64,000 bases of DNA from an uncultured Candidatus Peribacteria bacterium. GTDB lineage: Bacteria > Patescibacteriota > Gracilibacteria > Absconditabacterales > Absconditicoccaceae. The notes beneath the pieces were generated by a model. That model searched no databases, had not been told where the DNA came from, and saw nothing but the letters and a program-made list of their open reading frames with translations. Position 1 is the first letter of the stretch. Each line of letters starts with the position of its first letter. The stretch is taken from NCBI GenBank assembly GCA_964418415.1, contig CAYQLB010000003.1, forward strand, positions 12,618 through 76,617. Reading direction: 5' to 3'. Both the position numbers and the translations under genes were made by a program. This document shows, piece by piece, positions 522 to 60,011 of this stretch.

Positions 522-542
522 ATTAAAAAACTAAAAGATGTT

Positions 543-648
543 CCTCCTTTACTGGAAGGAGGGGGACCGGAACGGTGGAGGATTTTGTAACTTAAGTGAA
601 ATCTCCCATCCGTAAATACGGATACCTCCCTCTTTGAAATAAAGAGGG
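543..648 (+). repeat. ~105-nt five-helix structured element, copy A
   Basis: Helices cctcctt/aaggagg, accg/cggt, ggaggattt/aaatctccc, atccgta/tacggat and ccctcttt/aaagaggg. Confidence 0.75.
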
Positions 649-692
649 TACATAATAAAAAATAGACTTTAGACTTTAAGACTTTATAGACT

Positions 693-1886
693 ATGTTTAA
701 AAAAGACTTTCCTATTTTCGATAACAATCCTGGACTAATCTTTCTCGATAATGCTGCTTCGACACAGAAACCGCACTATGTCATAGAGGGTGTCTCTGAA
801 TTTGTTGCTTCATCTTATGCAAACATTCATCGTGGAGTATATTCTTTGTCAGAAAAATCAGAAGAAGCATATCATCATTCCAAAACATTGGTCGGCGAAT
901 TATTAAATGCTAAAGCGAGTGAAATCATCTATAGCTACAATTCTACCTATGCGATAAATCTAATGGCTCAATCGCTGGTGATTTCAGATATACTTAAAGC
1001 CTGAGATGTGATTCTTCTCTGAATTCGAGAGCATCATGCAAACATTCTTCCGTGGCAAGTATTGGCGGAGAGAAAATGATTTACGATAGAATTTTTTAAT
1101 ATTGACGAACAGTTCGAGATAGATCGAAATGACTTCGAAAAGAAATATACTGACAAGGTTAAAGTTGTTTCCGTAGCCCACGTTTCCAATGTCACCGGAA
1201 AGATCTATGATGTCAAAAAAATCAAATCCAAACTTCGTGATGAAACCTTTTTCTTGGTAGACGGATCACAATCAGTTCCGAATTTTCCAGTCGATGTGCA
1301 GGATATTGGATGTGATTGTTTAGTGTTTACGTGACACAAGATGATGGCGTACACGGGAATCTGAGTAATCTATCTTAAAAAAGAATGGATTAAGAAACTG
1401 GATCCTCTCATTCGCGGAGGCGGAACTATCGAGGATGTAGATATTTCAGGACATACATTAGCGACGAATTCCGACAAATTTGAAGCGGGAACTCCAAATA
1501 TCATCTGAGCGGTTTCCTTACTCAAAGCACTCGAATATATCAAATCTATCTGATGAATGAAAATGATCCGAGAGCATGAACAGAAACTTGTGAAACTATG
1601 TTTGGACGGATTCACAAAATTAAAAGGCAAGGTTGAAATTGTAGGACCGATGAATTCAGATAGAGTAGCAGTATTCTCGTTTGTACTTCCAAATAATAAA
1701 AACTTCAACAATATTGGCGAAAAATTTTCTGAATACAATATCGCAGTTCGTTGTGGTGGTCACTGTGCATATCCACTTCACAAACATTTCGATAAACTAT
1801 GAACATGTAGGATGAGCGGGTATATCTATAACGATGAATCCGACATTAAAGCTTTTTTCGATGTTCTCGAAGGACTTGTGAAATAA
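693..1886 (+). CDS. sufS: cysteine desulfurase, SufS/class V aminotransferase
   Basis: ATG 693 to TAA 1884. Motifs LDNAASTQKP, ANIHRGVY, EHHANILPWQ, FTGHKMMAYTGIG (PLP-Lys) and RCGGHCA. About nine in-frame TGA fall on Gly-compatible positions. Confidence 0.9.
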
Positions 1887-2283
1887 CGATGTAATGTGTC
1901 CACTATCAGGAGGAATCCGTTCTCACCCCATCACGTCATTCCCGTGCCAAGTGTTTGAAGAGGGAATCTATAGCGATATAGCTTTTTAGCATGGATTCCG
2001 GCTGCAAAACTTATCGCCGGAATGACGTCCAATAGTTTTGATATGGATTCTCACAGAGTTTATCCCGCAAAATGGGGTTCGTATAATGTATCGTAAACCA
2101 TTACCATCCATTACGGGCGGAAGCCCTCATTACATGAGCATTAGCGAATAAATTATTATTTAAAAGTATTATAGTATATATGTCAAGTCTTCCTAGCCGT
2201 TTAGGAGGGCTTTTTTTGTAAAAAAAGGGCTTTTGGAATATAATCTTTATATAGTACGACCTTTAGATTTTAGATTATATAGC

Positions 2284-4032
2284 ATGACTAATATCGAAAC
2301 ATTAAAAACTGAGGTGGATCAGGTAAAAATCGATCTGGATGCTTGTAAAGCAGAAACCTCTGAAGAAATCAAGAAATCCAAAGCGGAGGCAGCTGTTCTT
2401 AGAACCGAAGTTATAGAAAAGAAAGTAAAAGCCGCCAAAGAAGAGATCATCGCAAAGATTACGGCGCTTGAAGCCAAGACTGATGCGACCTCAAAGGCAG
2501 AAGTTATCGCATACAAGGCTGATCTTGCTACGATTGAAGAACGGTTGACAAGCATAGATGCTTCAAAAACGGAACTTGCTACGCTTCAGGCTACGGTTAC
2601 TACGCCAGAGCCTGCTATAACCGAAACCACAGATAAAAAAGATGAAACAAAAACGGATGATACCGATAAATCATGGATCAGGAAACAGCGGGATGGTGTG
2701 ACGAGCAAAGAAGAATGGAAGACAAATACCTGAGCGAATGTCGCCCGTATAGCATGAGGAATCGGGATAGTAGCATTAGGTGTTCGAGGGATCAAAAAGC
2801 TTTTTGGTATAGGTAAAGATAAAGAAAAGAAAGATAATTCATGAGACGAAAAGAATACAGAAGAAACAAAAGAAAAAAAATGAAATTCGTGGCGGAAATG
2901 GCTACTTGGTGGATGAATATTGGCGGCAGGGTGATATGGTCTCTATAATCTATTGAAATGAAAATGATTGAGTTTCGAAGATTCGCTTATCGCAGCAGAA
3001 GCTGATCTTGGAACTATTTCTGAATCAGATGAAATAAATATCGATAGATGAAAAATCAGCTATGAAGAATCAGTTAAACAAATAAAATCATATGGATTGG
3101 GTACAAAGATAGATAAATGAGGGTTGTTTAGTGCAAAAAAGATAGAAGGATTGGATATAAAATTCTCAGACTATAAACAGCTTATTCACGCTGCAAATCT
3201 TGTAAATTATATCAAACATAAATATACATGAAGATGTGAAACAGATACGCCTTTTTACACCAAATCATCTACATGAGATATTTATATCAAAATTAAAGAT
3301 TGAGAAAATAATACCAAAGAAGAAGAAATTATTAGTGGTGGTATTCGATCTACATTATCAAGTATATGCCCTGATGTTCTTAATGGCATATTTACCGATA
3401 CGAAGAATAAAGATAAATTTCTTGCTTATTTAAACAAACAAGGTGTTTGGAAAGAATGAAATGTAGTTGCTCCTGATGCTAAATGAGACAAGATACAAGA
3501 AAAAATGAATGAGGTTTGGCAAGAAATAGTCGATACACCAACCGAATTTGATCCATTATGAAAAGAAAGAGGACAAATAATTGCTACAGCAAATACTACG
3601 GATAAGACTGAGTATACGATTAAGAGTCGATGAACCCCACAACAGGAAACAGAAGTGAAAATGGAGGCTAATACTGATGGTACAATTACTTCATGAAAGA
3701 TAGATGGTTTGTCGATAACATTCACTACTGTGGAAGAATTATTAAGAACCGCAAATTTGATCAATAAATTAAAATATCAATACCATGTCGTAACACCATT
3801 ATTATTGGGACCAAATGAAGAAGCATTTTATCGAACGAGTTCATTTTGAATAGTATGATGACATCCATGAATATATGTTGATAATTCAACAACGTGGACT
3901 TTGGATGATAGAGTTATCAAAAAAGAGACATTAGAAAATATATTCCCTACGATTCTGAAAAACAAAGAAATATTTATTAAATATTTAAATGGATTGAAAG
4001 ATGAAAATGGTAAGGGATTGCGAGAAAAATAA
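2284..4032 (+). CDS. coiled-coil membrane protein (582 aa), short paralogue of the next gene
   Basis: ATG 2284 to TAA 4030, with more than 20 in-frame TGA. It has a ~110-aa heptad-rich N-terminus. A TM hairpin follows (ANVARIAGGIGIVALGV / Lys-Glu linker / SWWKWLLGGGILAAGGYGLY, with CGA/CGG read as W). The ~400-aa C-terminal domain has no motif I recognise. Confidence 0.7.
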
Positions 4033-4190
4033 TACAAAAAGTAAAAAAACCTTTTAAATACATATAAAGTATATATATCGTAATATGTCAATAAATATTC
4101 GTTATCAGACGGGTATTTTTTTGTTTTAAAAGGCACTTTCGGGTATAATAATTATAGAGTATATGACCTTTAATTTTGAGACCAAAGAGT

Positions 4191-7100
4191 ATGACTCCAA
4201 CAACAACTATTGAGACATTACAGAAAGATGTAGATTTGATAGCTACAGATTTGGCTGATCTCAAAAAATTGACCGATGAAAAACTCAAAGAGACCAAAGC
4301 TGAAGCAGCTGCAGATAAAGTAAAGACCGTTAAAGAAACAATCAATAAAAAGATTGAAGCGCTCAAAGGACTTACTGATGCAACTTCAAAAGCAGATATT
4401 ATTAAGCTCGAAACGATGCTTACGACATTGGAAGCTTCAAATAAAGAGCTTGAAACGCTCAAAACTGCTATTATGACTCCCAAGATAGATATCGATATCC
4501 CGGATACCAAAGTAGAGACGATGGACAATAGTGCAGACCTTGCTACCATCAAAACTAATATCACGGAAATTACCACATTGGCGACTACATTACAATCAGA
4601 GATAGATGCCTACAAACTAGCGAAAGCCAAAATGACGGCAGCAGAAATCACTGCCAAAGACAAAGATATCGTAGACAAAAAAGCAGCTATCGAAACCAAA
4701 AGGAAAGAAACCCAAGCGCTCATAGATAAAATCAAAGCAGCACGGAAAGCGCTCAAGATAAAAGATATGGAAGAAGGTGTACCCAAAACCGCATTAGAAA
4801 AACTTCAGACTGCAGATTTAGCAGTGCTTACTGCAGATCAGACAGCACTCGATAAAATACTGACTCCCGGAAGGACATTGTTTGAAAAAGTAGGTGATTG
4901 AGTTGGTAAAGTTCGAGGGAAAGTCAAAAACTGAGCTGAGAAAACACGAGAATGGGCAAAAGAAAATCCCAAAACCGCAATTGCTGCTACTGCAGGAATC
5001 GGATTTTTAGTTCGATGAATTTCCAGATTATTCAGGAAAAAGAAAAAAAGCGAAACAGGAGACGAGTGAGGAAAGAAAGAGAAGAAAAAAATGTCACGAC
5101 GAAAGAAAGCACTCTTACGATGATGAGGGATCTTGGGATGAATAGTTTTATTTAAAAATCGAGATAGAATAAGTAATCGGTTTAAAGGATTATTTGGTAA
5201 GAAAGAAGAAGATGCCGGAGGTGGTGCTACAGCATCTGAGACTATATCTTCTACCGAAGAAGCTGCAGAAAGCTTTGAAGTCTTAATGAAAGAAAAACCT
5301 GAATATGCAAACAAAATGAATACATTTTGAAATAATGTAAACGACTTTTATGATTCGATCTATAAATTTGATGACTGAACCATGCCTGAATGACTTACAG
5401 AATATACTCTTGGAACAGGGAAAGAAAAATATGTATGAGCAATTCCTCATGTACTCAATAATAGTTGTAAAGATTTAAATGATCTGAATAGCAAAGAATC
5501 TTTATTTAAACTTTGTGCTTATGGTAAAATAGCTGAAGTTCAAAAATGATTTGCTGATTTAATAGCAGGATGAGCTTGGAAAGTTGTAGGTGGTGTTATG
5601 TGAATGTTTGGTCTTTCATGACTTGTATCTGAAGAAAAGGTAAAGGGTGCTGTTTCTGGATTTCTTTGAACCAATGATATACCCGAAATCAATAAGGTCT
5701 TTAGAAAGATGCTTAAAGTTATGTCATATCTAAATTATGCAGAGAATTTAGTTGTAGCTCAACAAATAGAAAAAGCGATTGCCTGATGAGATAAGTTATA
5801 TAAAAAATCAGGTGATACATATGAAGAAATAGAATATCCAGCTGATAAAGAGGATGCTAAAGATCTGATAAATGATATCCAAAATTCTCCTAGTGATTAT
5901 AAACTTGGTGAAAAAGAATGTTCTGGTATAATAAGTGATATCAGAGGTAAAAAAATATATGATTTTGTGGAATATAATATCACTTCAGAGAAAATACGGG
6001 AATATAATCCCGATATCAAAGAGAGTATGAAAGATATCAATAAAGAAAGAGATGAAATAAGGAAAAAATTGGATAAGGATCCTGTTGGTACTTTAGAAAA
6101 AATGAAATGAGAAGCTGAGGATAAGATCGCTAATGGTATGTTTGAATCTATAAGAGACTTTATGCCTGCTTTGCATTTGGCAGAAAATATCGGTATAGGA
6201 CAAGATGCGAGTATCGAGAGAATGATCAAAGAAAGTGCTTGATTTAAAGATAATCTCGCAAAATATAAAGAAAAATTCGATCAATTGAAAACAGAAAAAG
6301 ATTTGAATAAGGTAAAAAAAGAGATAGATAATTACTATGCTACATTGAAAGAACTTCGTACAACCCAGAATGCTATGATAGAGACGTCTGATGAAAACGG
6401 AAATTTTATGCTGACCTTATGAAATTCTGCCAAGGATTTTTTTGTCTGAAGCGGTCAAAACATTACGTATGGGATTTCACTTATCCGGACAGGTAATGTA
6501 TGGAAGATTATTGAATGAACTGGATATGCTGTAACATGAGCGGGACCTTTTGTAATGGGACTGGGTATGTTTTTGAAATCAAAAAACATTATTTGTGCAT
6601 GAGCAAAAATGACTGTTGCTCCTGTCTATTATCCTATAAAATGGTGAGCAAAATTGTTCGGTAAAAATATCGAAGCAGAGTTTACTAATCTTTTGTGATG
6701 ACGTTTTATGAGTAGATTTTATCGTACTACTGATTCTCTTATTGATTGAATAGGAAAATGAATGTCCGTGAAAACTGCATATACTATTTTCAAATCCAAT
6801 GCAAAGGTTACAACATCAGTTGCAGAAAATTTTGCTTTCAAAGTATTATGAGCTACTGAGGATAATGCTAAATCTATTTGATCTCTTATTGAATCATGAA
6901 GATTTGATGTTGTGCAAAAAGCTCTTTCAAAAGATGTCTCTATACTCACGTGAGGTAAACGAATCAAAACTACTATTGGTATAGAGAAAACAACACTTGA
7001 AAATCTGACTGCTATCCAGAATATTTTGAAACAATGAGGAAATGCTTGAACAAACATGGAAAAATTTGGTTATGAACTCCTTGCAAAGTCCAATGTTAAT

Positions 7101-10100
7101 AATCGATCTAAAGTAAAGGATATATTATCAAGGGCTGATATAATGGATGATGTTAAATCTCTATCTTCGGTAGATGATGTAAATTTGCTTGCCAAAAATT
7201 TATGATCTTCTCTCGATAATGTTGAAGTTATTGATGATATTTTTGCTCAAAATTGTAAAAATGTAATTGCTTCTTTGGATGAACTCAAAAAATCATCTGG
7301 TACATGATTTAATGGTGTTATGAACTGATTGTTAGAAAAAATAGGAATTTCAAAAAAAGTGTTGAGTACTACAGAAATTACTGATGAAGCAAAAATAATT
7401 AGTGAACAGATGACTAAAATTTCTGGAGTTGCTGCTTTGGATGATGCAGCAAAAGCTAGTTTAAATATCGAGGTAAATGCAACGGCATATAGTCATCTTC
7501 TAGAAGGTACAGATAATGTAGATGATTTGACAAGAAAAATTATAGAAGAATGTAGTTTTGCAGATCATAAAGATTATTTTATAGATACACAAAAAATAGC
7601 TGAAGCAAAAGCATATGCACAATTTCTTATGGATAGTAGAAAAGTAGGTACAGCAATAGAATATACAAAAGACTTAACGCCGATAAGTAGTGTACTGAAT
7701 ATGGGAGATTATAATAAGTTAGCAAAACTCATCAATAAAGGAAAATCAGATGATATAGTAAAATTCTTAACAAAAAGGTTGGATAAAGAATGAGTAGAAA
7801 ATGCTTGAGAATTAGCACAAAAATTTGCCGATCAGACAAAAGGTATGCAAAATGCAGACAAAACAGAAGTTGCCAAGATAATAGGATTGAGTGAAAAAAA
7901 TACAGAGAAAGCAATCATCGCTATCACCAAGTCTCTTGCACAAGATAAAGTATTTGTTACTAGTATTTTAGCGCTTAATTGAGATGCAAAAGCAATTACT
8001 GAGGCATTAAATAAAAAATGCTGATTGATTTGAACTAATGTTACTATAACAGAAGAGTCTGAAATTGTCCAGAAGCTTGTTAATTGTGAAAAAGCTCAGG
8101 ATGTGGAAAAAACATTAGAATATACTTCCAAGGGATTAAAGCGAAGAATTGGTATTTCAGGTGTAACTGCAGCTCTTGCTATAGCAGGGGCAGTGATGTC
8201 TATCGTAGATACCGTACATGCATTCAATATGATAGAAACCACCAATAATGAAGATCTTAAAGATGTATATAGACAAAGAGGGTATGTAAGTGCATGATTT
8301 GCAGCTTTGGATACTTTAGTGGCAGTAGATGCTACCTGTGAATTGGCTTATTTAGCTTTCAGTGTAGGTCAATGAGCATTTATGTCTACAGGAGTAGGAG
8401 CAGTAATAATTATTGCAATACAAGGAGTTAGATATATGTATGATCAATATTCCTTGTGAGCGGAATTCCAAGCAAAAAATGCAGAAGATCGAAGAAAAGA
8501 ATGACTTTGATTATATTTTATATGGTATTATAGAAGTGGAGGAAAAACATCTTGAGAAAACGTGAAGGATTTTTTTGGTTCAGCTACAGATATGCCATTA
8601 GAAAAAATAGTAGAGTGATTGATAGATCAGACGTTATGAATACAGGAATGAGCAGGGACTCCAGATCAGCAGAGAGTGAAATGATATATGAAAGAATATA
8701 TGACAAAAAAATATGACAATAAATTAGATCATATGGAATCTGCTTTTTCTATGATGTCAGAAGCTTTGGAATATGCAACGTTTGCAGAATATATAAACAA
8801 TATCAAAAATTGAATAGTGAAACAAGATCAGATAACATGAGATATGGCAGATTTTATGTCAAAATATCCAGTAGCAAGCAATCAAGATAATCTTATAGCA
8901 TATTTCAATAAATACAAGGATTTCGTTAACGTACAACAGACACAGAACTTAGAGAAATATAGAGGTAATTTGCAGAAATATTCTGACCAAGAATTGACGT
9001 TTATCTATGAACAATTAGGAAGATATAATGATTATTATATACTTTCAGTAGAGTGAGTTAGTCTATTAACCGCAGTAAGAACACTATTAAAAGAAAAAAA
9101 TATAGATACATCAAAATTACAATTAAATTTTGAAGAACCACCAATCAATAGAGAACAGATAGAAAAATTTATTGCTACGTTAGGAGCAGAAGGAAATCTT
9201 CAAGAATCCATTGGAGATGCTAGTGAAGTGAAAGGAAAAATAGATCAAGTTATCATCAGTGATGAAGATCTTATAGAAAAATATTGAGCGGTACCGACAT
9301 TAGAGATATATACTTTTCTTAAGATAGCGAGAATATTTGGATATGCAGGAGAAGCTGATTTAGATGGAATAAAAATATTTCTCTCTGAAGAGAGTAAAGA
9401 TAAACAAGGGATCTACCGAGATTGAAATGAATGGAGGATAAATAATACGGCATTTTGGTCAGGATTTCGAAATAGATTTGGAAGAGATAGAGCAATATGA
9501 ACATGAGATAATGCAGTAAAAAATCTGAAAGATAATATAGATAAGATGGATTTTGATGATAAATATCTCTGAGCATTTGATTCTGCTGGTATCAAAACAA
9601 AATTAAATCAATTAAGGGAAGATATAGATAAAAAGATAGAAGTAGATAAAATGCAGAGCATTGCGCCTGTAAGCAAAAATGAGATAGTTGAATATCTCAA
9701 AAACAATAATTGAAAATATACCTTATTATCTATACAATTATTAAGCAGACTTTTGCAAAAGAATGCTGTTAAAAATTCAGGACATTATCTTTTTAAATAT
9801 GAAAACAATAAGATAATAGCTCTTCCATTAGATACACATGCAAAAGAAAAATTATTTTTTGTAGATGAAATAGATACATCATCGGAATCAAAATTTAAAT
9901 ATGAAATAATGACTGAATTGGATGCTAAGCCAATGTTCAATCAATTACAAGATCTCAGAAAAATCATTAATCTGGATGATGACGAATTCGATGTAAAACA
10001 AAATCCTGCGATAGAAAAGATTATTGCTGACAAGGAAATGGAAATCCAGATATTCATGAGTAATCTCAATAATTATGATAAACCGAAACAAAAAGAGTTA

Positions 10101-10601
10101 TATTATAAAAAATTAGAAGAGATTGAGGCATTTCATCAATCATTTTTGATTTCATTCTTATCACAATCTGCTGATAATACATTCTCGAACGATGTTGACG
10201 AGGAAAATGCAGATGAAAAAATACTCCAATCAACCAAATACGGTGAGTGGCAGAATTTCAACAGTGTTATTGTTAATAAATACAAAAAAGAATATAATGT
10301 TTTGCAATTATCTGATGAAATTTTAGCTAAATTAAATGGATTAGAATGATGATTTGATTATGTTAATTATTATTATAGAGGCATTTCATTAGCTATGTTT
10401 AAATCATATGTATTATATCAAGAAAATGGTCAATTCCACGCACAAGGAGATCAAAATCTGGAAATAAACGAGTTAGAAAAGAATTTATGAGAGATAAAAT
10501 CCTATAAGGAGTATATGAAACAATTCAAATGAAAAGAAACAACTGACGATATTGCATTAAATTTTAGTGGTAAAATACAACAAATAAAGACAATAGAATA
10601 A
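4191..10601 (+). CDS. giant polytopic membrane protein (2136 aa) with N-terminal coiled coil
   Basis: I checked codon by codon that frame 3 has no TAA/TAG from ATG 4191 to TAA 10599. Five track ORFs (4176, 7329, 8103, 8844, 9753) are all in this frame and are joined only by TGA. The N-terminus is paralogous to gene 2284. There are several hydrophobic helix clusters (about 4950-5150, 5560-5640, 6480-6640, 8150-8440). Confidence 0.75.
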
Positions 10602-13752: not shown

Positions 13753-14172
13753 TCTACAATTCATTACACGAAGTAAATTACAATTCATTACATCCGCGTC
13801 AGCGGATACATTACATATCCAATTTCGATGTCAGTATAATGTTTTCCTTGACAGTGTCAAATCATTTTTGACAAAATCAATCATATTTTTGACAAGCATA
13901 GAGAATGTAGTTCTCCATATAACAAAAATCTCTTGATTTTCTAAAATAATTCATTAAAATTGATTTTGTTGATGAGAAAGAACTCAAAAAAACGATTTGC
14001 TTGTCATGTACGATTGATGTCGTAATCGGTGAATCGATAGAGGAATTTGCTCGTAATGCATTGTAATGATTCCTTCGGAATGTAATGATTAGTAATGTTC
14101 ATTACGCCGTAGGCACATTACGCTGCAAGCACATTACCGTAAATTAGTTTTATACTATTATAATAAAATATC

Positions 14173-15371: not shown

Positions 15372-16682
15372 TTATACTTCGAGACTAAATTCACCTATTT
15401 TTGTTTCATCAATAGTGATAATAATGGATGCTTTTCCTGCTTGTTGTGCAAGAATAGCGATATCCATTTTACCGTTATTGATGATCTTTATATTAGAGAT
15501 GTCCGGTTTAAAAGTATCATTTGTTGAAAGTACCGTGAATGCAAATGGTAGTAGTCCTGAATATTTTTCTCATGTTTTTTTATCAGTGACTTCTATAATT
15601 AAAGAAGCCATTTCGCCGAATTTTAGTGGTGAATTAGTGACTAAATGGATAATGAGATTATTTTGTGTGAGAAAATGTTGAGCGATATCACTGAGGTCTT
15701 CCAAATTAAGTATAAGATCTTTATTGATAGATGTCTGGGGTAATATAATCGGTGTAGTTGGTAAAGTTGGTGTTGTTGGTAAAGTTGGTGTGGTTGGTAG
15801 AGTTGGTGTAGTTGGTAGAGTTGGTGTAGTTGGTAGGGTTGGTGTGGTTGGTTGAATTGGTGTAGTTGGTAGGGTTGGTGTGGTTGGTAGGTTTGGTTTA
15901 GTTGATTGAGTTGATGTAGTTCCTGTATTTTGACTACCTGTATTAGTTATTGGATGTATAGTATCTTCATCATCTTCATCAGTAGAGGTGTTTTTATTGT
16001 TATAAATATAGCATTTCACCTGTGCTGTGGTAAGGTCATCTCGACGATCAGACATTTTTCCTCTACCTACCCAAGCCATATCTCTGACAATGATTTTTTT
16101 CATAGATTTGTCGTAGTGAAGAACTTTGCCTACATGTCCGTATACTCAAAATCTACCTCAAGCATCATAGACAATCAATGCTCATTGAACTGGAGTTGTA
16201 CCTATTTTATATCAGGTTTCAGCAGCATTTTTACATCGATCTACAGCATTCCCTCACCATGTTCTTTGTTGGGTATTGTCATCGATAAATGGAAAAAATT
16301 CAGGAGAAATTCTCGCTGCTCCGTAGGTACAATATCATTTGGTGAATGTATTTTCTATATCCATACTCATATCCCATATAGAGATAATATTTCCTTGTTT
16401 GAGTGAGGTGCCTGGGTTTTTCATAGCTTCCACTAATGCTTGTGATACTTCACTACTATTGTTTCTATAGAGTTCTTCACTATATCCGGTAAGATTAGCA
16501 AAAAGTCGAGATCAAGAGATTAAGGTTAATAGTACGACCCCCATAAGTTCACCAACATGTATCAGGTGATGATGGAAATATTGATGGATATGAAAAATCT
16601 TATGCACATGTCTGTGTATGTGTTTTTTGATATGATTATGTATTCTGTGGTGAAGAGCTACGTGCTTCTTTATTTTTTTCAT
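15372..16682 (-). CDS. CHAP-domain peptidoglycan hydrolase with His-rich N-terminus and PT-repeat linker
   Basis: ATG at 16682, TAA at 15372-15374. CHAP Cys box FTKGYCTYGAARI and His box GVYGHVGKVL. Eight TPTLPT repeats. The C-terminal ~110 aa is an unknown domain. Confidence 0.85.
15751..15895 (-). repeat. 8 x 18-bp in-frame tandem repeat encoding (TPTLPT)n
   Basis: ggtgtagttggtaRRgtt units read directly. They translate on the minus strand to PTTPTL repeats. Confidence 0.9.
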
Positions 16683-16808
16683 GGCACGATAAAGGCTAAA
16701 GCGAGTAAACGTTCAAACGCATAAATGATGCAATATTTGTGTATACAGTATCATTTAGTCGCTCTATCGTTTAGTCCTTAAGTAATTATAGTCACAGAAG
16801 TCAGTTTT

Positions 16809-17008
16809 GTCAAATTTCAAACGACTTTTTTAAAGGAATGAATTTGACTCATCATTCAATGAAAAATACTGAAACATATTTTTCAAGAATGAAGTAGTCA
16901 AATTTCAAGGGACTTTTTTAAAGGAATGAATTTGACTCATCATTCAATGAAAAATACTGAAACATATTTTTCAAGAATGAAGCAGTCAAATTTCAAGGGA
17001 CTTTTTTG
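16809..17008 (+). repeat. 88-bp intergenic tandem repeat, 2.3 copies
   Basis: Units start at 16809, 16897 and 16985 (gtcaaatttcaaRSgacttttttaaaggaatgaatttgactcatcattcaatgaaaaatactgaaacatatttttcaagaatgaagYa). Each unit contains the inverted repeat gtcaaatt..aatttgac. Confidence 0.9.
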
Positions 17009-17085: not shown

Positions 17086-18213
17086 ATGAATAAACATATC
17101 CTCTTCGTCTTGGACTATTATCTTCCTCATAAAGGCTGATCAGAAACAGTGTTTGAAGCTATTATTTCTCGTTTACTAACAAAAGGATATACGGTATCTG
17201 TTTTGACGAGTCACTTCGATTCAGCATTGCCGCGTGAAGAAAAGAAAGAGAATTTTCATATATATAGGATCGGCAAAGGAAGAATCAGTTTTATGGTTGG
17301 GGCGTTGAGTAAAGGAATAAAAATTTTAAGAAAACATAAAGATATTGCACTTATCCATACGAGTACCTATGGAGGAGCAATCCCTGCTTCATTGCTCGGA
17401 AAATTGTTTCATAAGAGAGTGATTTTGACCGTTCATGAGGTGTTTGGGAAACTTTGGAATCAATATAAAGGATGGCGAAAAGCTTGGTTGTATAGGATAT
17501 TCGAACGTGCTGTGTTTCGATTCCCGTATAGCACGTATCATTGTGTATCGTATTATACTATGAATGCACTCAGAATGATGTACGGCATTCCAGACAAGAA
17601 GATCAGGATGATTCACAATGGCGTAGATACGGCATTCCGAAATCCCGATGAAGTTCCTGCTTTTGATGGTAAAACACGAAGAAATGAACATGGTCGAAGT
17701 AATCGTTTCGTGGTAACCTATTATGGTCATGCAGGCAAATCAAAATGACTCGATTATTTGGTTCGTGCCTTACCTGAGTTGGTTACTGTAGATGCTCAGC
17801 TCCTTTTTGTTTTCAATCTCATAGATTCCAAAAGAACACAATATATCAAAGAAAAAATAAGGAAATATCATCTCTGATCTTCTGTTCAGATATTTGATGG
17901 TTTCGAGAAAGAACAGCTCCGCACATTGATTTCAGCTTCTGATATGATCGTGGCGCCATCTATCTCTGAAGGATTCTGATCCGTACATACCGAAAGTGTT
18001 GCGATGAAAAAACCGTTATTGACAACCTATATAGCATCTATTCCAGAAGTTGTACGAGGAAATGTAAGATTTATCTCACCTACATCCAAAAGAGACATAA
18101 TCCAGGCTATCCTTGAACGTGAGGAATGGATTGATAATCCGGACTACTTCATTCCGCACAAGGAATTTTCACGAAATGAAACGGTAAAAGAACTGATTAC
18201 ACTCTATCGTTAA
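17086..18213 (+). CDS. glycosyltransferase family 4 (GT-B, Glycos_transf_1)
   Basis: MNKHILFVLDYYLPHKGG.. N-terminus. C-terminal E-x7-E region is APSISEGFGSVHTESVAMKKPLL. Track ORFs 17149 and 18004 are in one frame, joined by TGA. Confidence 0.85.
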
Positions 18214-18274: not shown

Positions 18275-21200
18275 TTATTTTTTGTTGCTGTTATAAATAA
18301 ACTCTTTTACATCATCTAAACTGCTGAAATATCTTTCACTAGTGAATGTATAAGATGAATATCTACCATTAATATCCTTGAAGAAATAGAAAACCTTTTT
18401 ATTCGGTGCAGTGAATGGTGATGTTTGCCATATTCCATCGATGCGCGCATTTTTCCATCGAGCTAAGATAGGTTTAGCATTCGCATATTGTGATCCTGCA
18501 GGATTATTGATATCGATGATATATTTTAATGTATCCAAGGTAGGGAAATATTTAGGCACTACGAAATTCGTCGAAGTGAACCGTTGTGTTGCGCTATCAT
18601 AGGTGATAGTGTATCTTTTACCATTAGGCGCGGTATAGACACCATTATTGATTCGATCCATAATATCTATTCCTTCTTCGCCGAATTCATCGCTTTCATA
18701 ATATTCGTCAGCGAGATCATAGAGGTATTTCAATGCTTGCCATTCTGTATCATCTTCATCGTCGATATCATCCATTTTCTCTTCGAGCATAAGCATAAGG
18801 GTATTGAAGAATTCTTCTTCTTTGTCTCCTGCATAGAGATCTCTTAATGTTTCGAAGAGATAGACAACAATAAGTTTCTCAGTGTTTGAAAGATCAGTAT
18901 CGATATCGTCATAATCATCATCTACATCATCATCTTCTTCTTTGGTGGTAACTTTGAAAGTATCTGACTTACTATCGATAGTCAGCGTGCTTTCCACGGA
19001 ATCATCATATTCATCGCTTGAGATAAGCTCTATTTTTACTGTCCATCCATTCTGTACATATCACGTAGTTCCTACAGCATTTCCGCTGATGTAGAGCATT
19101 CCTCTATTAATGATTGCAAGTACTTGTGTTCCTGTAGAAAGACCACTGATAGTAATAGTATTAGACATATACGTTTCATCAAGGTCAGCATCATCGATAT
19201 CATTGAATGAAAATGTATTTGGTGTTGTATCCAATATTCCGCTATAGATAAATGATGATGTTGTGGAATATCATGAGTTTCCAAGATTATCTGTCGCTGT
19301 GACATACCGGTAATATACTCAATTGCTGAGAGTAAGGTTAGGTATGGTAGCTTGAGTAGTTGTTGTTGTAGATCACGATCGTCTGATAATAGTGAATCCT
19401 GTAGTATCTGATACATAATATCTATATCAAGAAATTCCCACCGCATCACCAACACCTGATCGGCTGAGAACAACATTTCCACTTACACTAGCTCAACTGA
19501 GTGGACTGCTAAGTGTAGGAGAGATAACCGTAGTGTCTAGATATACAGAGAGAGATGGAAGAGTTACCGTATCTCCAGAAGTATTCTCTAGAGAAAGCTG
19601 TACGGTTTTAAGTCCATCATTTCCCGTAAGTTGTGGATTAACAATAATATGTCAGGAGATAAGTCCTCCAGTAATACTATTTACTATATCAGATCATGTG
19701 ACTAGATATTTGTATGGTTGATTAGCTCGAAGATCTATTGAAGCATATGCTTTGACATATCGGTATGGCGTAACGTAATAACGATTTGTTCCTGTCAGTA
19801 CTGCTTGTCCTGAAAGTGGTGTGGTGATCATAAACGGTAAGATTTGGCTCATACCTGTGTTTCCTGCACGATCTGTGATAATAACATATCGGGTATAATC
19901 CAAAGCATTATTCATAGTATGTATAGTATATCCTGTATTTGTTGTTGTGATAGTGTGTTGATAACTTCAGGTTACATACAAAGTATACCCAGAAATTGCT
20001 GTTTCATCGAAGCCTGTCCATGAAAACGCAATATTGTTAGTTCCGGTGATATTGAGTCCGCTCGTAGGATAATTTGCCGTAACTGATGGATTCGTCATAT
20101 CTATAGTAAAGATCATCCCCGTAGAATTATCAGCAAGATCGTAGACAGTAAATATATAGGTTCATTCTGAACTCACTATTTCCCCATCAGTAAAGTTTCC
20201 ACTATAATAGGAAATATTCATTCCACTAACTATAGCTCCAGAAATATACAAATCATTAAAATTGATAGTAATTCATGTGTTGTAGTAACCTCCACTGATG
20301 ACATTACCGGATATTAATGACCCTAATGTAGTGCCGGTAAATACAGGTTTAATTTTATCTATAGTAAAGGTTATTCCTGTGGTATTTCCTTCATTATCTT
20401 CCAAAACGAAAGTATAGGATCCATCTCAAGTAATGAGGGCATTATTAGTATATGGAGTACTGTTTAATAGAGCTCATGAAATATTAAGTCAGGTGAACGC
20501 TATCCTGATTCCGGTATTATAATATCCACCATTAGTAATAATAGTTCCTGATTGTGTTGTTCCTGTAAAGTATAATCATGGTGTTCAAAATGAGAAGAGT
20601 TTAAGTGTTCCATTGGTAGAGAAAATACATTCAAGAGATGTATTTAATATACATCAAGAATCTATTGTATTTGGTGACCATGTGTTTCCGTCGATTGATT
20701 TTAATATACTAAGATATTGTCCTATAGTTCATGATAAGACTTGATAATATATCGTTCCTGTTCCTTCATTCATAGTAAGATAGGTTGATCCAGAAATTAC
20801 CTCTATAGTATCAAAAAATGTTGTAATCAATTGTGCTGATCATACATCTCATGTTGTTGCTAATTTGATTCCTGTAGTTATTTTTGTCGGTATATATACT
20901 GTACCATCTCGGTTAGCTCCAGAAATAGTAAATGAAGTACTTCAGTGTATTTCAAAATTTGTTGCTAAACGTAGATGATCAAAATAGATAGGGAATGTTC
21001 ATCCTATAGATAAAATGTTTCATGTTAATTTTGCAGAATTTAATCCTTCAATTCGTATATCATTATTTTGTGTGTAAGTGTCATAAGTAGTATATTGAAA
21101 AGATCAGTAGGCATTAGATTCAATAATGCCATTATCTCATGAAAAATAAATTATTCTATTTCACGTGGAATTTTGCATTAATATATTCCATCATCAAATT

Positions 21201-22909
21201 CAATAAACGATAGAATTCATAATGTTGTTATTATTGCTATTATCCAAGAATATTCATTGACCGCCGTTTCATGATAATATGCTTCAAGAGATAATATTTG
21301 CACTTGATCATGTAAAGACTATTCCTTCATTATAATTGCTGTTTATGACAGAATTTATGATTTGGGTATTGTTTGAGGTGTCTAATGTTATTCAATTATC
21401 TTCATTACTTGATAAATTACATGAATCAATAATAGTTCAAGAAGAAAAAGAAAGTAAAATACCATTACCATTAAAACCAATAAGTCCATTATTATTGAAG
21501 GTTGAATACATGATATTATTACTTGTTCATGTTTCAATCACTATTCAGACTCTACTGTTATATGTACTAGTAGAATGAGTGATGGTATTGTAATCACTAT
21601 ATGACATATATACTCCATGTCCCATATTTCCTGAAATTATTGCTCAGCTTATCGTATTATCAGATGAATTGGAAGTGAATACGATTCCATTTTTGGAATT
21701 GTTACTGATGTTTATAGATGTGAAGATATTGTCCATTGAATCATCAAGATATAATCATCCTTCATTGCTGTTTGAGACGATAATCATTCATGTATTGTTG
21801 TTTGAGTTATAGAAATGTACTCATGCATAATAATTTCCGTAGACATAGATTCACATCAAATTATTACTTGAAGAATTGTTGAAATATACTCACATAGCAT
21901 TTGCACTATTATTGGCAGTGATATCAATAAATGTATTATTGTTGGAATTATACGTAGATACATTGTGGTCTGTGTTGTTATAGGAATCTACATTAGTGAA
22001 TGAACTATTACTTATTCATTGTAAGGATACCCCTTTTCATATGTTTGATGAAATATCTATATCAAGAAAATTGTTATAGGATCATGTTAATAGTGATACT
22101 CCATGGGTATTATTGTTGCTATTTATACCACTAAATACGCTGTAGTTTATATTGTTAAATGCAATTCCATATACACTATTTTGATATGTTTGTACATTAT
22201 TCATGAAAATGTTGCTTACATTAAGACCCACTATTCCATTTGAATTATTGTGGAGTTGTGTATTTATAATATCCATATAAGATACTCCAGAAATGAGAAT
22301 GCCATATGCATTATTTGATCATGTCGTATTTTTATACGCTTGGAAATCTCTTACGGTTGTATTCATGCCGCCATCGAGGTAGATTCAGAAATGTCATTCG
22401 TTGTTCCCGTCTACTCTTATTTTTTCAATAATGATATGTTTGTTTCCATTACCTTTGATGATGGCTGGATTGGTCGTATTACCTGAAAGTGTGACTATTC
22501 CCGAACTAATCAATGCTACACAATCGTTGAGTGTAATCGGAGCTGTTACATCATAAATGTCAGAATCTATCACATAGATAGTGTTTGCTACGGTTGAAGT
22601 GGGAATCGTTCATGTGAATTCTACTGTCATTCATCCGTTCAAGCATGAACCAGAATTGTATCCTGTCCAATGCTGTGTATATGCGGTGTTTTCATCACCG
22701 CTTCCATAGAGCGCTCGGATGATATCATCATCAGTCGGTGCATTATCCCAAAATAATCAGCTGAGATAATTGGAATTATCTCGTGTGATAGTTCCTACCG
22801 TCCGTGTTGCTGCATTCGCGAAGAATGCATAGATTCACAAGAAAATCCCCATAGCGATAAAGAGGATGCTCATGAATTTTGAAACGGTTGATTGTTGTGT
22901 GTGTTCCAT
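18275..22909 (-). CDS. giant surface protein (1544 aa): signal peptide, Asn-rich parallel beta-helix repeats, Fn3/Ig-like modules, acidic tract, C-terminal domain
   Basis: ATG at 22909 (MEHTQQSTVSKFMSILFIAMGIFLGIYAFFANA). There are ~20 repeats of the type NNxxNGIxxxxSxNNxI (pectate-lyase/NosD-like). Fn3 signatures are VVLSWSGVGDAVGISGYRYYV and GVYYWYVTATDNLGNSG. An acidic run EEDDDVDDDYDDIDTD is present. Track ORFs 18275, 19694, 22082 and 22835 share the frame. I checked 18995-19500 codon by codon. Confidence 0.8.
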
Positions 22910-22949
22910 GATATGGTTGAAATGATAAATGATAATTTGGGCTACGCCC

Positions 22950-23083: not shown

Positions 23084-23309
23084 ACGAACGCAGTGAGTCA
23101 TATACTATTATATACGCAGAATTGAAAATTGCGAAATGTGTCCTATTCTGATATATATTCAACTTGCTTTTTTTATAAAAAGTTATGAAATATGTTAACA
23201 TACAAAACCATTGAAACGTCGAGGGAAAAACGTATTTACAATACAATACCATGTATGATGTGAAATACATAGTATAAAATATTTTTTTAGCATATGTAGT
23301 GATATTATT

Positions 23310-39309: not shown

Positions 39310-39451
39310 CTAAATAAATGAATAGTTAATAATTAAAAGTTAATAATATTGGTAGTATCTCTTGATGAACTGTTGTAAAACATGGTAGAGAATAGTGATA
39401 CAGGTCTTTCATTTTTTATTTTTCATTATTCATTATTAATTTTTCGTTAGG

Positions 39452-46817: not shown

Positions 46818-46838
46818 AATTAAGAATTAAGAATTAAG

Positions 46839-52106: not shown

Positions 52107-52159
52107 ACTAAAAAACTATAATTTTAAATTTCTAATTTTTAATTTCTAAAACCTAAAAG

Positions 52160-53161
52160 CTAAGAACTAAAGTCTAGTTGTTGTCAGACCATGCGTTCGG
52201 TTTCCTTAATCTCTTTACAAGATTTCTCTATCAGTTCGTCTAGAGTGAAAGTGATTTCTTCTCCCTCGATGAAAAGTTTTTTGAAATGCATGAGATAGAG
52301 AAAAATAAGCATCGTCATTCTAACATCATTCTTACAATATTTTTTGAATTCTTCCAGTGCATCGAGATCGTTTTCTTCCAGATATTTTTTGTAGAGAATT
52401 TCTCATTCTGCTCATGAACTCAGTGTTTTACTGATATTGACAAGCGCTTCAGCAATTTTATTTAATCATAGCCTTTTACCGGTCATAGCTCGGACAAAGA
52501 GAAAGAGGTCGATGCTTTTTTCATTGATTTTTTTGATATCATCTTCATTGCCTCAGATGTTATATACAGAGACGATATTGTCGAACGCTATGCTGTTGAA
52601 TCCTACAATATATCAGTCGAAGTCCAGCATCTTTTGTACAAATGTTCTAAGTTCTTCTTGATCAATATATTCATAGGTCATCCTGTTGCCATCAGTAGGG
52701 TGCATCGCATATGCTAAAAGGAATTTTGTTTCTTTGAGATTTTCGATGTTGGTATCTGTTTCTATATCGTAGACCATATATTTTTTTCCTCAGATGGTAG
52801 AATATTTTCCTGTATGGAATTCGTCGAGAAGAATCTGTTCGATGGATTTCTGTCCAGTAACTCTTTCTTTTTTTATGAAAAAGTTTTTGACCATAGTTTG
52901 GAACTCTCTTTTACCTTGATCGTCGAGAATGAGTTGTATTTTTTCTCTTTCGTCCATGAGGATATATTCGTTACCGGTATCTTGGAATCTGAAGGTAAAA
53001 TCTCACCTATTCATATAGTAAATTTCTTTCCCTTCCTTGAATATCTTTTTGAATAAATCACTTGCTATCATACAATGCTCCTTTTTGAGAATACCATAAA
53101 AGTTTACAAGAAAATTGTTCTGTACTGTCTTGAGTTCGTTGATAGTGAATCTTTTGTACAT
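52160..53161 (-). CDS. DEDD-type 3'-5' exonuclease (RNase H-like fold, YprB/PolB-exo-like)
   Basis: Exo I MVYDIETD, Exo II IVGFNSIAFD, Exo III YCKNDVRM. I checked the 5' part codon by codon. TAG stop at 52160. Confidence 0.65.
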
Positions 53162-53169: not shown

Positions 53170-53247
53170 AACAATTTTAAATTTTCAATTTCTAATTTCT
53201 AAACATAAGAATATGTTTGAAAATTGAAAATTAGAAATTAGAAATTA
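53170..53247. repeat. AT-rich imperfect inverted repeat built from aattttMaattt / agaaatt units
   Basis: caattttaaattttcaatttctaatttctaaacata agaa tatgtttgaaaattgaaaattagaaattagaaatt, between two minus-strand genes. Confidence 0.8.
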
Positions 53248-56651: not shown

Positions 56652-56670
56652 AATAATGAAGATAATAATA

Positions 56671-57159
56671 TTATTTCCTTGTTTTCAGGTGTTCACTAAC
56701 AGCATGCATCAATGTATTTAACTCACTCGTTTCTGAGCAGAGTCTCTTGGGGATGCTGAGAGGACGAGTTCCTCCCATAAATGACCAAGTACCCTGATAT
56801 TCGAGTGTGCTTTGACCTTCGATATGGATACAGGATCCTTTGGGGATTCCTTTGTAGTCCTCAGTCGTCCAGACTTCTTTGGGTAAAGAAGCAGTAGAAT
56901 TATTATCTTGATGTTTTAGAACTTCTGCTTGGAATCTTTCATAAAATTCCGTCAGGATATTGGCCTCATTTTTTCCTTGTGCCCGATTGGAAATCGTAGT
57001 TATCCTATTGGATAGCGTATGGTACGATGGATCAGATTCCGCGAGCTTTTGCATCATTTTTTTGAGACTAAGGAGCTCTGATTTACTGATATAGGTCTGC
57101 TTCATGATCTTTGCGAGAAACGTAGCAGCATTATCAAAAAAAGAATTGTTCGTTTTCAT
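56671..57159 (-). CDS. hypothetical protein (162 aa), TGA-free, higher G+C
   Basis: Intact in both codes, TAA stop, own terminator. No motif recognised. Confidence 0.55.
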   Translation of the reverse strand: MKTNNSFFDNAATFLAKIMKQTYISKSELLSLKKMMQKLAESDPSYHTLSNRITTISNRAQGKNEANILTEFYERFQAEVLKHQDNNSTASLPKEVWTTEDYKGIPKGSCIHIEGQSTLEYQGTWSFMGGTRPLSIPKRLCSETSELNTLMHAVSEHLKTRK

Positions 57160-57201
57160 ACTATTTTGTTTTTGGATGAGTATATGAGATTTTTATTTTG
57201 C

Positions 57202-59877
57202 TTATTTTAGTTCGTCTTTGATTTTGTCTAAAATTTGTAATGCTTGCAGAGGAGTGATATTGTTGAGATCGTAGGTGTCGAGCAGTGATTTCAATTTCTC
57301 GTATTTTATTCAATATTCGGGATTTGGTGAAAGGTCGAAGGTCGAAGGTAGAAGATTCTTATTTTTGTTGCCTTGTCCCTTGTCCCTTGTCCCTTTTTCC
57401 TGTTCAAGTTCATTTAAATGCCCTTTTGCTCTTTCTACTATTGTAGCAGGAATACCCGCTAATTTAGCGACATCGAGACCATAGCTTTTATTGGCTCATC
57501 ATTTCACTATTTTTTTCATGAAGATAACTTCTTTATCGGTTTCATAGACACTTACGGAATAGTTTTTCACACCCGGGTGTGTTTCTTCCAACTGAATCAA
57601 CTCATGATAATGAGTTGCTATCAATGTTTTCGCTTTGATAGTGATGACGAGATATTCTAAGATTGCTTTGGTCAATGCGAGACCATCATAGGTCGCTGTT
57701 CCACGACCTAATTCGTCGAAAATAATGAAACTATTTTTCGTCGCATTATTCAAAATATTTGCAACTTCAATCATTTCTGTCATGAAGGTAGATTGATTTT
57801 TTGCAATATTATCTCCGCTTCCTATACGCGCAAATAATGCATCCATCAGCGGAAGCTGACATTCCTTCGCCGGTACGAATAATCCACAATGCGCCATCAA
57901 GACGATCAATGCATTCTGTCTGAGATAGGTCGATTTACCTCACATATTCGGTCCTGTAATTATATGGAGAAATCAGTTGTCTGTAGTGGTTCATCATGTA
58001 TCATGTATCATATATCATGCATCAAGCTGTAAGTCATTTGGTATAAACTGCTGATCGCGTGGTAAAAATTCTTCGATAACCGGATGTCTTCCTTCGATGA
58101 TATGTAGTGTATCGTTTTTCACAAACAGTGGTTTGATATATTTCTTTTCCTGTGCTAATATCGCTTGCGAAACGAAAAGATCCAATTGTGAAATCTTCTC
58201 AGCAAATTCGTGCAATTGTTTCATATTATCGTGTATCTTTGTTTTTGCTTGCTCGAGGAATTCGTATTCCATCTTACTCAAAATATCTTTTGCTTCCAAT
58301 ATCTTTCATTCCAAATTCTCAAGATACGGAGAAGAATATCTCTGACCTCACTTCAGCGTATTCCTACGAACTATTTCAAACTTTCCATCTCATTCTCCAT
58401 TCTCAATTTTAAATTTTCAATTAATATTTTTTTCGAAATTTTCTATGTCTTTATTCGTTACTTCCAAAAAATATCCTTGATTTAGTACATACTTTACTTT
58501 GACGGTCGGTATGCCTGCGGCTTGTGCCAATTCTTGCTGGTATTGTAAAAGTAGTTCATCACTATGATAAGCAATTTTTCTGAGTTCATCTATTTTTTCA
58601 TGGTATCCATCACGGATATAGTCGATATCGTTTTTGTATTCTTCATCGTTTTTCAAAAGCTGTTCCAAATAATTATACAGATGCTGGAGATAATTATTAC
58701 TTACTTCAGTCAATCATAATATTTTCAATTCATCGAGCAAAAATGTATTTTCGAAGAAAATTCTCAGGGTTGATCTAAGTTTGATAAAGGTATTTGGTAA
58801 TAGTTTTTTGTATAATATCGTTGTTACGAGTTTTGGTATATCGCGTACATTACATAGAAAATGGTGAATGTTTTTGCTTTTTTCTTGGTCAGAAAAATAT
58901 TTCTCTATCATATCCAATCTTCGCTGTAACTGCTCAAGATTTTTGATAGGATTCGTAAGTGTATGGTGGAGAAGTCTAGAACCACCAGCTGTTTGTGTAG
59001 TATTCAAAATATGGAAGAGACTATATTTTTCACTTCATTCATAACTTGAAGATAATAATTCCAGATTTTTAATCGTGACTTCATCCAGGATGAGATACGT
59101 ATCCTGTGAATGAAAGGAGATTTTCGTAATATTGGTCAGTGAAGATTTTTGGGTATGGTTCAGATAGGAAAATAATAGGGCTATCGTTGCTAATCTACCG
59201 TTCTCGAGCGCTTTTCCATAGCTTGAAATCTGTTGAACTCCCGTTATTCATGAGATAAATTTTTCTGGATCTGGTGGAATATCCCATATCGAAATCAATG
59301 CTTTCATAGCTTGTTGTACGGGTACGGAGATACTTTCTTTTTCAGGAAAATCGATGTCAAAGACTAATTCAACAGGTTTAACCGCGATGATAAATTTCTG
59401 TAGTTCTTGGATATCTGAAAAGCTTTTGGTTCGGTATTCACCGACACTAAAATCTCATCGAGCAAGATGATAACTATTTCCGTTGGTATACGGGATAAAG
59501 GTCATTGCCATCGTATAAGTATACGATTTTTTTGCTTCTTGGATATAGGTTCATGGAGTGATGATACGTACGACTTCTCTTTCCACTATTTTTCCGGGGA
59601 TAGGTTCGCTCGTCTGTTCGGCGATAGCGACTTTATAGCCATTATTGATTAATTTCGTAATATATTTGTCGGCACTATGGTAGGGAATGCCAGCCATGGG
59701 GACGGAATTCTCTGAATTTTTATTCTTGCTCGTGAGGACAATATCGAGCACTTTACTGCAGATTTTTGCGTCTTCAAAGAAGGTTTCATAAAAATCTCCC
59801 ATACGAAAAAATAAGATACAATCTTCATGTTCTTTTTTGATATCAAGATACTGGATAATCGCTGGAGTAAATGCCAA
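57202..59877 (-). CDS. mutS: DNA mismatch repair protein MutS
   Basis: [49 protein letters not shown] (TGA 57940-57942 = Gly), [35 protein letters not shown]. Five track ORFs share one frame. I checked the tail codon by codon to TAA 57202. Confidence 0.95.
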
Positions 59878-59907
59878 AACTAAGAATCAAAATGACTAAA
59901 ATTCTGA

Positions 59908-60011
59908 CTCCCTTTGTAAAAGGGAGAAACCCGAAGGGGAGAAGGATTTAAGTCGTAGACACGAAATCCTCCATCCGCATCGGCGGATACCTCCTCCTTT
60001 TATAAAGGAGG
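59908..60011 (+). repeat. ~105-nt five-helix structured element, copy B
   Basis: Same architecture as copy A with different stem sequences: ctccctt/aagggag, ccc/ggg, gaaggattt/aaatcctcc, atccgc/gcggat and cctccttt/aaaggagg. Confidence 0.75.

Follow-up and report, generated by a model that had tools for sequence, protein, structure and literature searches.

The window analysed here, a 64,000-nt stretch of contig CAYQLB010000003.1 from an uncultured Candidatus Peribacteria bacterium, carries two copies (A and B) of an element of five hairpins, and the question raised by this locus is whether the element is a structured RNA or a repeat. An earlier note, made from the letters alone, had offered both a structured RNA and a cluster of REP (repetitive extragenic palindromic) sequences as candidates. 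[quoted passage not shown] The repeat half of the earlier proposal stands, since the element is multi-copy, consists of inverted units also found singly, lies at non-syntenic sites in both orientations and enters genes, and the half that proposed a discrete RNA is not supported. The family has a common architecture, a clade-wide multi-copy spread, turnover at orthologous sites, single units in frame within genes, and a nested nuclease gene with matching gene-less doublets.

Alignment of 13-15 full copies showed the five-helix element to be a doublet of two related, mutually inverted units of ~50 nt: a left (L) unit composed of H1, H2 and a head, and a right (R) unit composed of a head, H4 and H5. 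Both units follow one plan: next to the head AAATCCNCC stands a small hairpin that varies (H2 or H4), and after it come a joint of 4 nt, a second hairpin of the polypyrimidine/polypurine kind (H1 or H5) and a tail that closes with TTAG or ATAG. The R unit accordingly reads as head AAATC(C/T)NCC, H4, ACCT, H5 and a tail ending in TAC or ..TTAG, and the L unit, read on the opposite strand, as head AAATCCTCC, H2, CCCC, H1 and tail AACATCTTTTAG. An R-unit hidden Markov model (HMM) has opposite-strand matches in the left halves of doublets, and L and R units are each also found alone. What had been described as helix H3 consists of two heads placed face to face; between them is a hypervariable spacer (0-28 nt) whose sequence is unrelated among copies; in one doublet (L023; loci are given by L numbers) the spacer has zero length and GGGAGATTT runs without interruption into AAAATCCCCC. 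Copies A and B are present on the plus strand of the window where the earlier note had placed them, each with its five hairpins, and consist of the following parts:

531-585, plus strand: copy A, L unit, in the order tail CTAAAAGATGTT, H1, H2, head GGAGGATTT
531-536, plus strand: copy A, CTAAAA
543-549/556-562, plus strand: copy A, H1
566-569/573-576, plus strand: copy A, H2
577-585, plus strand: copy A, left head GGAGGATTT
586-598, plus strand: copy A, hypervariable spacer (the former H3 loop), the site of a DUF559 gene in related elements
599-651, plus strand: copy A, R unit, in the order head, H4, ACCT, H5, tail TAC
599-607, plus strand: copy A, right head AAATCTCCC
608-613/618-623, plus strand: copy A, H4
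624-627, plus strand: copy A, ACCT joint
628-635/641-648, plus strand: copy A, H5
59896-59949, plus strand: copy B, L unit, in the order tail CTAAAATTCTGA, H1, H2, head GAAGGATTT
59896-59901, plus strand: copy B, CTAAAA
59908-59915/59919-59926, plus strand: copy B, H1
59930-59932/59936-59938, plus strand: copy B, H2
59941-59949, plus strand: copy B, left head GAAGGATTT
59950-59963, plus strand: copy B, spacer aagtcgtagacacg, in which GTC/GAC form a small inner stem
59964-60018, plus strand: copy B, R unit, in the order head, H4, ACCT, H5, tail ACAATAG
59964-59972, plus strand: copy B, right head AAATCCTCC
59973-59978/59983-59988, plus strand: copy B, H4
59993-60000/60004-60011, plus strand: copy B, H5
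13792-13807, plus strand: lone H4-type hairpin ATCCGC-gtca-GCGGAT, from the pattern count, with no head or H5 recognisable alongside

The CTAAAA that had been seen as preceding both copies is real and conserved, and is identified here as the tail of the left unit. The 18-base core CCATCCG-N6-CGGATACCTCC occurs twice in the window, in copies A and B, against 0.02 occurrences expected, and ATCCG-N6-CGGAT, for which 0.03 are expected, has three occurrences, of which the lone hairpin at 13792-13807 is the third. This isolated H4 module, which the earlier note had picked out, is thus real and improbable by chance, although other parts of the element are absent beside it; taken alone it is not significant (HMM E 0.23; covariance model (CM) E 4.2), and it may be a relic of a unit. 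A window-wide CM search with filters off found only copies A and B in the 64 kb, and matched both on the reverse strand too because the element is pseudo-palindromic; across the family, the full HMM and the CM likewise match every copy on both strands. Beyond A, B and the lone hairpin, neither a hairpin scan nor nhmmer nor the unfiltered CM gave further copies in the window, and a hairpin at 26773 lies within a small open reading frame (ORF) that is gatC-like by eye. No Rfam match in the window reached gathering level (the best permissive hits, at E 0.14-0.31, fell far under the cut-offs), and ARAGORN also returned nothing.

Covariation between the copies was counted helix by helix, and a CM realignment was left unused since it kept H1 and H5 of type B, the subtype of copy B, in shifted register. 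Checked by hand, the compensatory changes reported earlier are true double compensations at two pairs of H1, two compensated pairs in H5 and one in H4, where the loop-closing pair is T-A or C-G; H2 keeps a GAA loop in both copies on a stem of 4 bp in A vs. 3 bp in B. The case for H3 had been overstated, as each copy retains an A.C mismatch, at different positions, copy A includes a G.T pair, and no clean compensation is found. For the family as a whole, a tally of 56 distinct copies anchored on H4 and ACCT gave four H4 variants (ATCCGC/GCGGAT, ATCCGT/ACGGAT, ATCCGA/TCGGAT, GTCCGC/GCGGAC) and five H5 variants, each perfectly complementary; the H1/H5 arms vary among CCTCC, CCCTC, CCCCC, CCTCCC and CTCCC. 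A perfect 7-bp H5 was present in 52/56 copies vs. ~50% when 3′ arms were shuffled among copies. The stem variants are self-consistent and hairpin potential is therefore preserved.

Some copies depart from the basic plan. Extra GC-rich hairpins are nested inside H2 (CCCCGCAatgcTGCGGGG) or in the H1 loop (L060 6747-6923, L063 3453-3629, L110 ~470-600), which suggests that hairpin modules were inserted into one another. Other GC-rich modules (e.g., GGGGACCCGGcggtCCGGGGTAGAGGTTT) follow R units of the AAACCCT subtype near comM and DUF559 genes (L030 ~3500-3620, L038 520-640, L109 ~1000-1150), and the two unit types described here do not make up the whole repeat repertoire. A likeness of GGAUACCUCC to GGAUCACCUCC, a possible mimicry of the 16S 3′ end, was considered and not adopted.

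When further copies were sought beyond the window with pattern and HMM scans, the pair proved to belong to a family spread across many assemblies. An exact-pattern scan of one genome per species gave 51 loci, ~31 of them from low-GC metagenome-assembled genomes (MAGs) of Absconditabacterales, SR1, Gracilibacteria or 'Peribacteria' and the rest high-GC chance matches, with a maximum of 11 copies in a single MAG. A stricter pattern added 37 loci from metagenomes, all low-GC, and an nhmmer census that included copies with diverged cores reached 81 elements in 66 loci; viral contigs gave 0 matches. Type A doublets are highly conserved in sequence between MAGs, one of which has three of them, and two loci from other MAGs (L034, L051) are of type B. 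The family is one of dispersed GC-rich palindromic repeats specific to CPR (candidate phyla radiation) bacteria that use genetic code 25 (Absconditabacterales/SR1/Gracilibacteria). It is apparently undescribed: the papers searched contain no account of repeats of this kind from these phyla, and none connects DUF559 with palindromic repeats. CPR (Patescibacteria) genomes are considered to be streamlined, with little mobile DNA, and here the repeat family is clade-wide. Such repeats will break MAG assemblies, inflate variation in protein length and mimic structured RNAs in covariation screens.

The doublets are intergenic in ~27/~27 cases and fill essentially the whole spacer, the HMM match coming within 0-20 nt of the genes on both sides. 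Co-directional spacers hold 5 in sense and 7 in antisense orientation to the genes, and there are 3 convergent and 2 divergent cases. Their sites are non-syntenic: the window orthologues of genes that flank the doublets of L003 and L006 are without the element, and no doublet follows the L005 orthologue of window gene 30-521. Exact empty-site boundaries for copies A and B were not obtained, as the flanking spacers are too diverged to align. A T-rich tail follows H5 in 11/26 doublets and the reverse of H1 in 13/26; copy A is terminator-like on the minus strand only, by way of the reverse of H1, and copy B on neither strand. The T-tail pattern and terminator scans were inconsistent, and a general terminator role was set aside. 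A promoter role was also rejected, as -35-like TTGACA/TTGAAA motifs occur in some H5 loops but scan counts were no higher than in shuffles. So was a role as a DNA-uptake sequence, an idea that came from in-gene copies in uvrC, comEC and nucleases, at a density of ~1 per 30 kb and with units of 50+ nt. Clustering of neighbour genes revealed no recurrent transposase.

What did recur in this clustering is a small gene for a DUF559 protein (PF04480, E 3.5e-24), a Vsr-like PD-(D/E)XK nuclease of 123-135 aa, which in at least 7 assemblies occupies the position of the doublet spacer. Composites of L unit, DUF559 ORF and R unit were found in L007, L016, L026 (partial), L089-92, L093-95, L096 and L110, with the start codon ~17 nt past one head and the stop codon overlapping the other. 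In L007, the L unit is succeeded by 18 nt, an ATG and a 372-nt gene whose TAA stop overlaps the R-unit head. A gene-less doublet of the same subtype is present in the same MAG (L023), and by comparison with L007 it looks like a precise internal deletion. Similarly, the doublet at 5914-6060 of L015 is the gene-less form of the L093 type, and L093-95 share a MAG (JBAYUS01) with the type A doublet L003. In the composites H2/H4 covary as well (ACCAC/GTGGT, ACCC/GGGT; ATCCC/GGGAT, GTCC/GGAC), and one identical protein (P0162) is found with at least two different downstream neighbours. When DUF559 homologues were collected by profile search and their contigs examined, even distant DUF559 genes nearly always had at least one unit within ~100 nt. 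The protein retains the D..E.D..H motif columns, and its closest solved relative is an uncharacterised endonuclease-like structure (PDB 3hrl, E 1.7e-17); a superfamily survey (PMC3424549) places a group I intron homing endonuclease together with VSR and DUF559. With DUF559 in the spacer of the larger form, the doublet can be likened, in its relation to the composite, to a MITE or a REPIN and its protein-coding partner. The DUF559 nuclease probably serves or targets the element.

Single R units also enter genes. Approximately 22 lie inside long, Pfam-supported ORFs, in both orientations, and their hosts are UvrC (3 sites), a YidD-Fmt fusion, a GT4 glycosyltransferase, ComEC, an SNase-domain protein, a PD-(D/E)XK nuclease and the C-terminus of DUF559. 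The reading frame is open through every in-gene copy, therefore translation of the units is implied. The predicted peptide is ..NPPSASADTS(P/S)F.K.. in the sense orientation and ..SL(S/I)KEEVSADADGGF.. in antisense, and in either orientation only a single frame is used, others being open too. In the YidD-Fmt proteins of L055 (1041-2879) and L084 (2916-4754), a complete serine-hydrolase domain (PF06821) is inserted in the formyltransferase N domain directly after the R unit, and the orthologues in L049 and L074 have the unit only, with no serine-hydrolase insert; the unit may here mark a recombination junction.

Turnover of the units is best seen in uvrC. The UvrC proteins of L004 and L029 carry the unit at different positions, so that each serves as the other's empty site, and that of L086 carries it at a third site. 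In an unbiased set, the R-unit peptide was present in 10/120 UvrC homologues. At site 3, which follows LGKGEARKKSNI (UvrC P0001-P0062), close relatives have an R unit, a variant unit (..SLIKEVANEGEPEDL..) of the same architecture with a degenerate middle hairpin, a short unit that consists of H5 only (PLDKGGKQKGGF), or none; in all, this one linker takes up at least four kinds of peptide insert derived from hairpins. These states are interleaved among close relatives on a neighbour-joining tree of UvrC, which makes site 3 a hot spot where units are gained, replaced and lost.

Several observations weigh against reading copies A and B as gene-less repeat doublets. Direct repeats that would indicate target-site duplication flank 1/17 singlets (L029 only, 17 nt), and among 488 ORFs in ~500 kb of partial-genome loci none has the HUH/Y motif of RAYT/Y1 transposases (RuvB was a loose match only), a Y1/RAYT transposase elsewhere in these genomes being possible. 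DUF559 itself is not known to act as a transposase. The window contains no DUF559 homologue, no gene-bearing element with exact type A or type B ends was found, and the arrangement of distant DUF559 genes varies, with units on one side only (L104, L109) or reversed (L111). Type A doublets have, in the extension of H3, several G.T pairs that work only on the plus strand. Third-codon positions of the site-3 insert vary at 1/18 among the five uvrC lineages that share it vs. 71/98 in its flanks, and orthologous copies share their H5 subtype where paralogues in the same MAG differ. The G.T pairs, which become A.C on the other strand and show one-sided changes to A-T or C-G, would suit a structured non-coding RNA gene or a cis-regulatory leader, with five helices formed in the plus-strand transcript and selected for RNA function. 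The folding z-scores of copies A (-2.8) and B (-4.3), the compensatory changes that copies show in H1, H2, H4 and H5 and the high conservation of type A between MAGs point in the same direction. However, the reverse strand folds equally well, with comparable z-scores. The doublets have no preferred orientation relative to genes and fill their spacers, leaving no room for a promoter, and their sites are non-syntenic, with three type A copies in one MAG. The halves stand alone and run through coding sequences both ways, the H3 loop can hold a protein gene, and a match in Rfam is lacking. Lastly, the earlier note had taken covariation to speak for structural selection over mere spread of a repeat, but it does not separate the two, since compensatory changes that preserve the hairpin are described as common in REPINs also, whose DNA hairpins predict them equally (PMC3116915). 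Altogether, we regard an RNA function as the selected one as very unlikely.

The uvrC figures bear on the possibility that the element is a host-domesticated DNA or RNA module under purifying selection, such as a bidirectional terminator, an mRNA 3′-end stabiliser or a site for a DNA-structuring protein, a role that would be compatible with a selfish origin and for which an analogy exists in the host-domesticated role proposed for REP and BIME sequences of E. coli. In the same five lineages, variable columns number 5/54 in the element vs. 102/240 in the flanks, and 0/26 in its stems. Near-invariance of the insert together with the sharing of subtype could reflect host-level selection on nucleotide sequence and not selfish spread; the pattern of shared subtypes in orthologues and different ones in paralogues also argues against concerted evolution as its cause. 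Most doublets abut at least one gene 3′ end, and the T-rich tails and the terminator-like reverse H1 of copy A would fit such a role. Yet T-rich tails are expected at 35% GC, a terminator role is impossible for copies in divergent spacers (copy B by the start of mutS) and for those midway through ORFs, and, given the rapid replacement and loss at the uvrC hot spot among close relatives, conservation may be a matter of recency. Recency can explain the invariance of the insert and is the simpler explanation, with host-level selection a minority possibility. We therefore hold domestication of the family to be unlikely, and a terminator or mRNA-end role possible for some copies, not generally. A further alternative is that DUF559 is a free-standing homing endonuclease whose gene invaded a pre-existing doublet at the pseudo-palindromic head-to-head junction that its product would cut, and that it does not drive the spread of the units. 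The gene lies exactly between the two heads, L023 keeps the junction of GGGAGATTT and AAAATCCCCC intact in the MAG of L007 as a presence/absence polymorphism, an identical protein is found in different contexts, and the Vsr/DUF559 clade has a homing endonuclease among its members. Homing would leave unexplained the spread of units and single R units and their entry into coding sequences, and most doublet spacers are 12-28 nt of unrelated sequence, so that no single conserved junction exists; on the sequences at hand it appears highly improbable.

The reading of copies A and B as members of a REPIN/MITE-like repeat family can be set against known systems. REPINs are doublets of REP sequences that form hairpins and are associated with RAYT transposases (Bertels and Rainey, 2011; PMC3116915). 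Like them, the present elements consist of two inverted short palindromic units with a poorly conserved spacer and a predicted long hairpin, occur as doublets and singlets in which compensatory changes are common, flank a single protein gene, and are inherited largely vertically within a restricted clade. They differ in that the flanked gene encodes a DUF559 PD-(D/E)XK nuclease and not a Y1 HUH transposase, each unit comprises two hairpins and a head, the halves of a doublet are non-identical (H2 vs. H4), the singlets are not only extragenic (the ~22 R units in ORFs), and copies are few, with 2 in the 64 kb of the window. Rickettsia palindromic elements (RPE; Ogata et al., 2000, summarised in PMC10969869) are similar in being palindromic repeats in the small AT-rich genome of a host-dependent bacterium, found in frame within unrelated housekeeping genes as extra peptide segments, with no known transposase. 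In contrast to RPE of ~100-150 bp, the units here are 54-60 nt (18-20 codons) and unrelated in sequence, are inserted in both orientations with one tolerated frame each, form intergenic doublets, are linked to a nuclease gene and return to a hot spot at uvrC site 3. The likeness to RPE is functional only, and the element belongs to neither the REPIN nor the RPE family. As with MITEs, a non-coding element shares inverted ends with a larger protein-coding one (L007/L023; L093/L015), but target-site duplications are lacking, the protein of the larger form is not one recognised as a transposase, and the ends are complex hairpin modules instead of simple terminal inverted repeats. Bacterial interspersed mosaic elements (BIMEs) of E. 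coli are extragenic and assembled as mosaics from REP units, and ribosomes skip the mitochondrial byp elements. The present repeats resemble BIMEs and the mitochondrial GC clusters or byp elements in their mosaic hairpin modules with variable linkers and in being GC-rich in an AT-rich genome and sometimes located within coding sequence; they differ from the former in lying also within genes, and from the latter in that the frame is open through every in-gene copy.

If copies A and B are indeed such gene-less doublets, the nuclease may recognise hairpins extruded in single-stranded or cruciform DNA, and the units would then spread via cleavage and copying repair, or by a transposition-like transfer. 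Purifying selection would leave copies only where they are harmless, i.e., in spacers and in surface linkers that are read in two benign frames. A bolder version, which we put forward tentatively and with considerable doubt, is that DUF559, a very widespread nuclease domain without assigned function, is a dedicated enzyme of palindromic repeats, the PD-(D/E)XK counterpart of the RAYT-REPIN pair, which recognises units of two hairpins and spreads doublets among spacers as well as half-units of 18-20 codons to surface linkers in essential proteins, with some copies, such as those in uvrC, under selection at the nucleotide level. If true, there would be a second, non-Y1 route to REP-like elements, and the nested gene suggests a concrete and testable role for a large family of uncharacterised nucleases. 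Most of the interest of the system lies in this nuclease partnership, which is still inferred. The family also joins REPIN-like doublets with RPE-like in-frame insertions in essential genes (uvrC, fmt, comEC).

The window that hosts copies A and B has a GC content of 34.6%. ORFs called with translation table 11 are short, and coding content triples when UGA is read through. TGA codons fall on invariant glycines, as in the Walker A motif of MutS (GPNM[G]GKST) and in the SufS-type motif FT[G]HK (e.g., 693-1886 and 57202-59877). The window therefore uses genetic code 25 (UGA = Gly) and comes from an organism of the SR1/Absconditabacterales/Gracilibacteria type. Copy A had been placed between an ftsQ-like gene and sufS: the gene at 693-1886 is sufS-like, matching class-V aminotransferases (E 1e-105), and the 'ftsQ-like' ORF at 30-521 has no Pfam match. 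Copy B lies in a divergent spacer next to mutS; the identity of this gene was confirmed, and it starts 30 nt away on the opposite strand. Downstream of copy B, a small ORF (60170-60540, MKEIDILKK...) has no Pfam match, and after it lies CTCCGGatataCCGGAG, a perfect hairpin that is terminator-like in both directions, between runs of A and T (60588-60604).

Other features of the window were recorded as well. Two giant code-25 ORFs are present, 4176-10601 and 18275-23101 (2141 and 1608 aa), the first of which, with the adjacent ORF 2233-4032, clusters with uvrC-neighbour proteins in L004 and L044 and with an ORF of L031. Many spacers contain a unit of 7-8 nt in 3-6 tandem copies, with a sequence that differs from spacer to spacer, e.g., TAGACTT before the sufS-like gene, TTAGATC, CATTTAT and TTTTATCA (spacers at 663-692, 27193-27216, 29332-29365, 29530-29573, 32057-32086, 32490-32523, 35549-35581, 39317-39445, 46818-46838, 52119-52171, 53173-53247 and 63764-63805), and spacers of L005 likewise have tandem runs (TTATCAGTT). 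These may represent a clade-specific promoter or regulator architecture, or spacers that are prone to slippage. Between ORFs 15372-16754 (minus strand) and 17086-18213 (plus strand), a unit of 88 nt recurs in 2.3 copies that are 97% identical (16809-17007), and the C-terminal coding part of mutS includes two adjacent period-7 repeats, AAGGTCG (3.4 copies) and CCTTGTC (3.6 copies), at 57331-57395.

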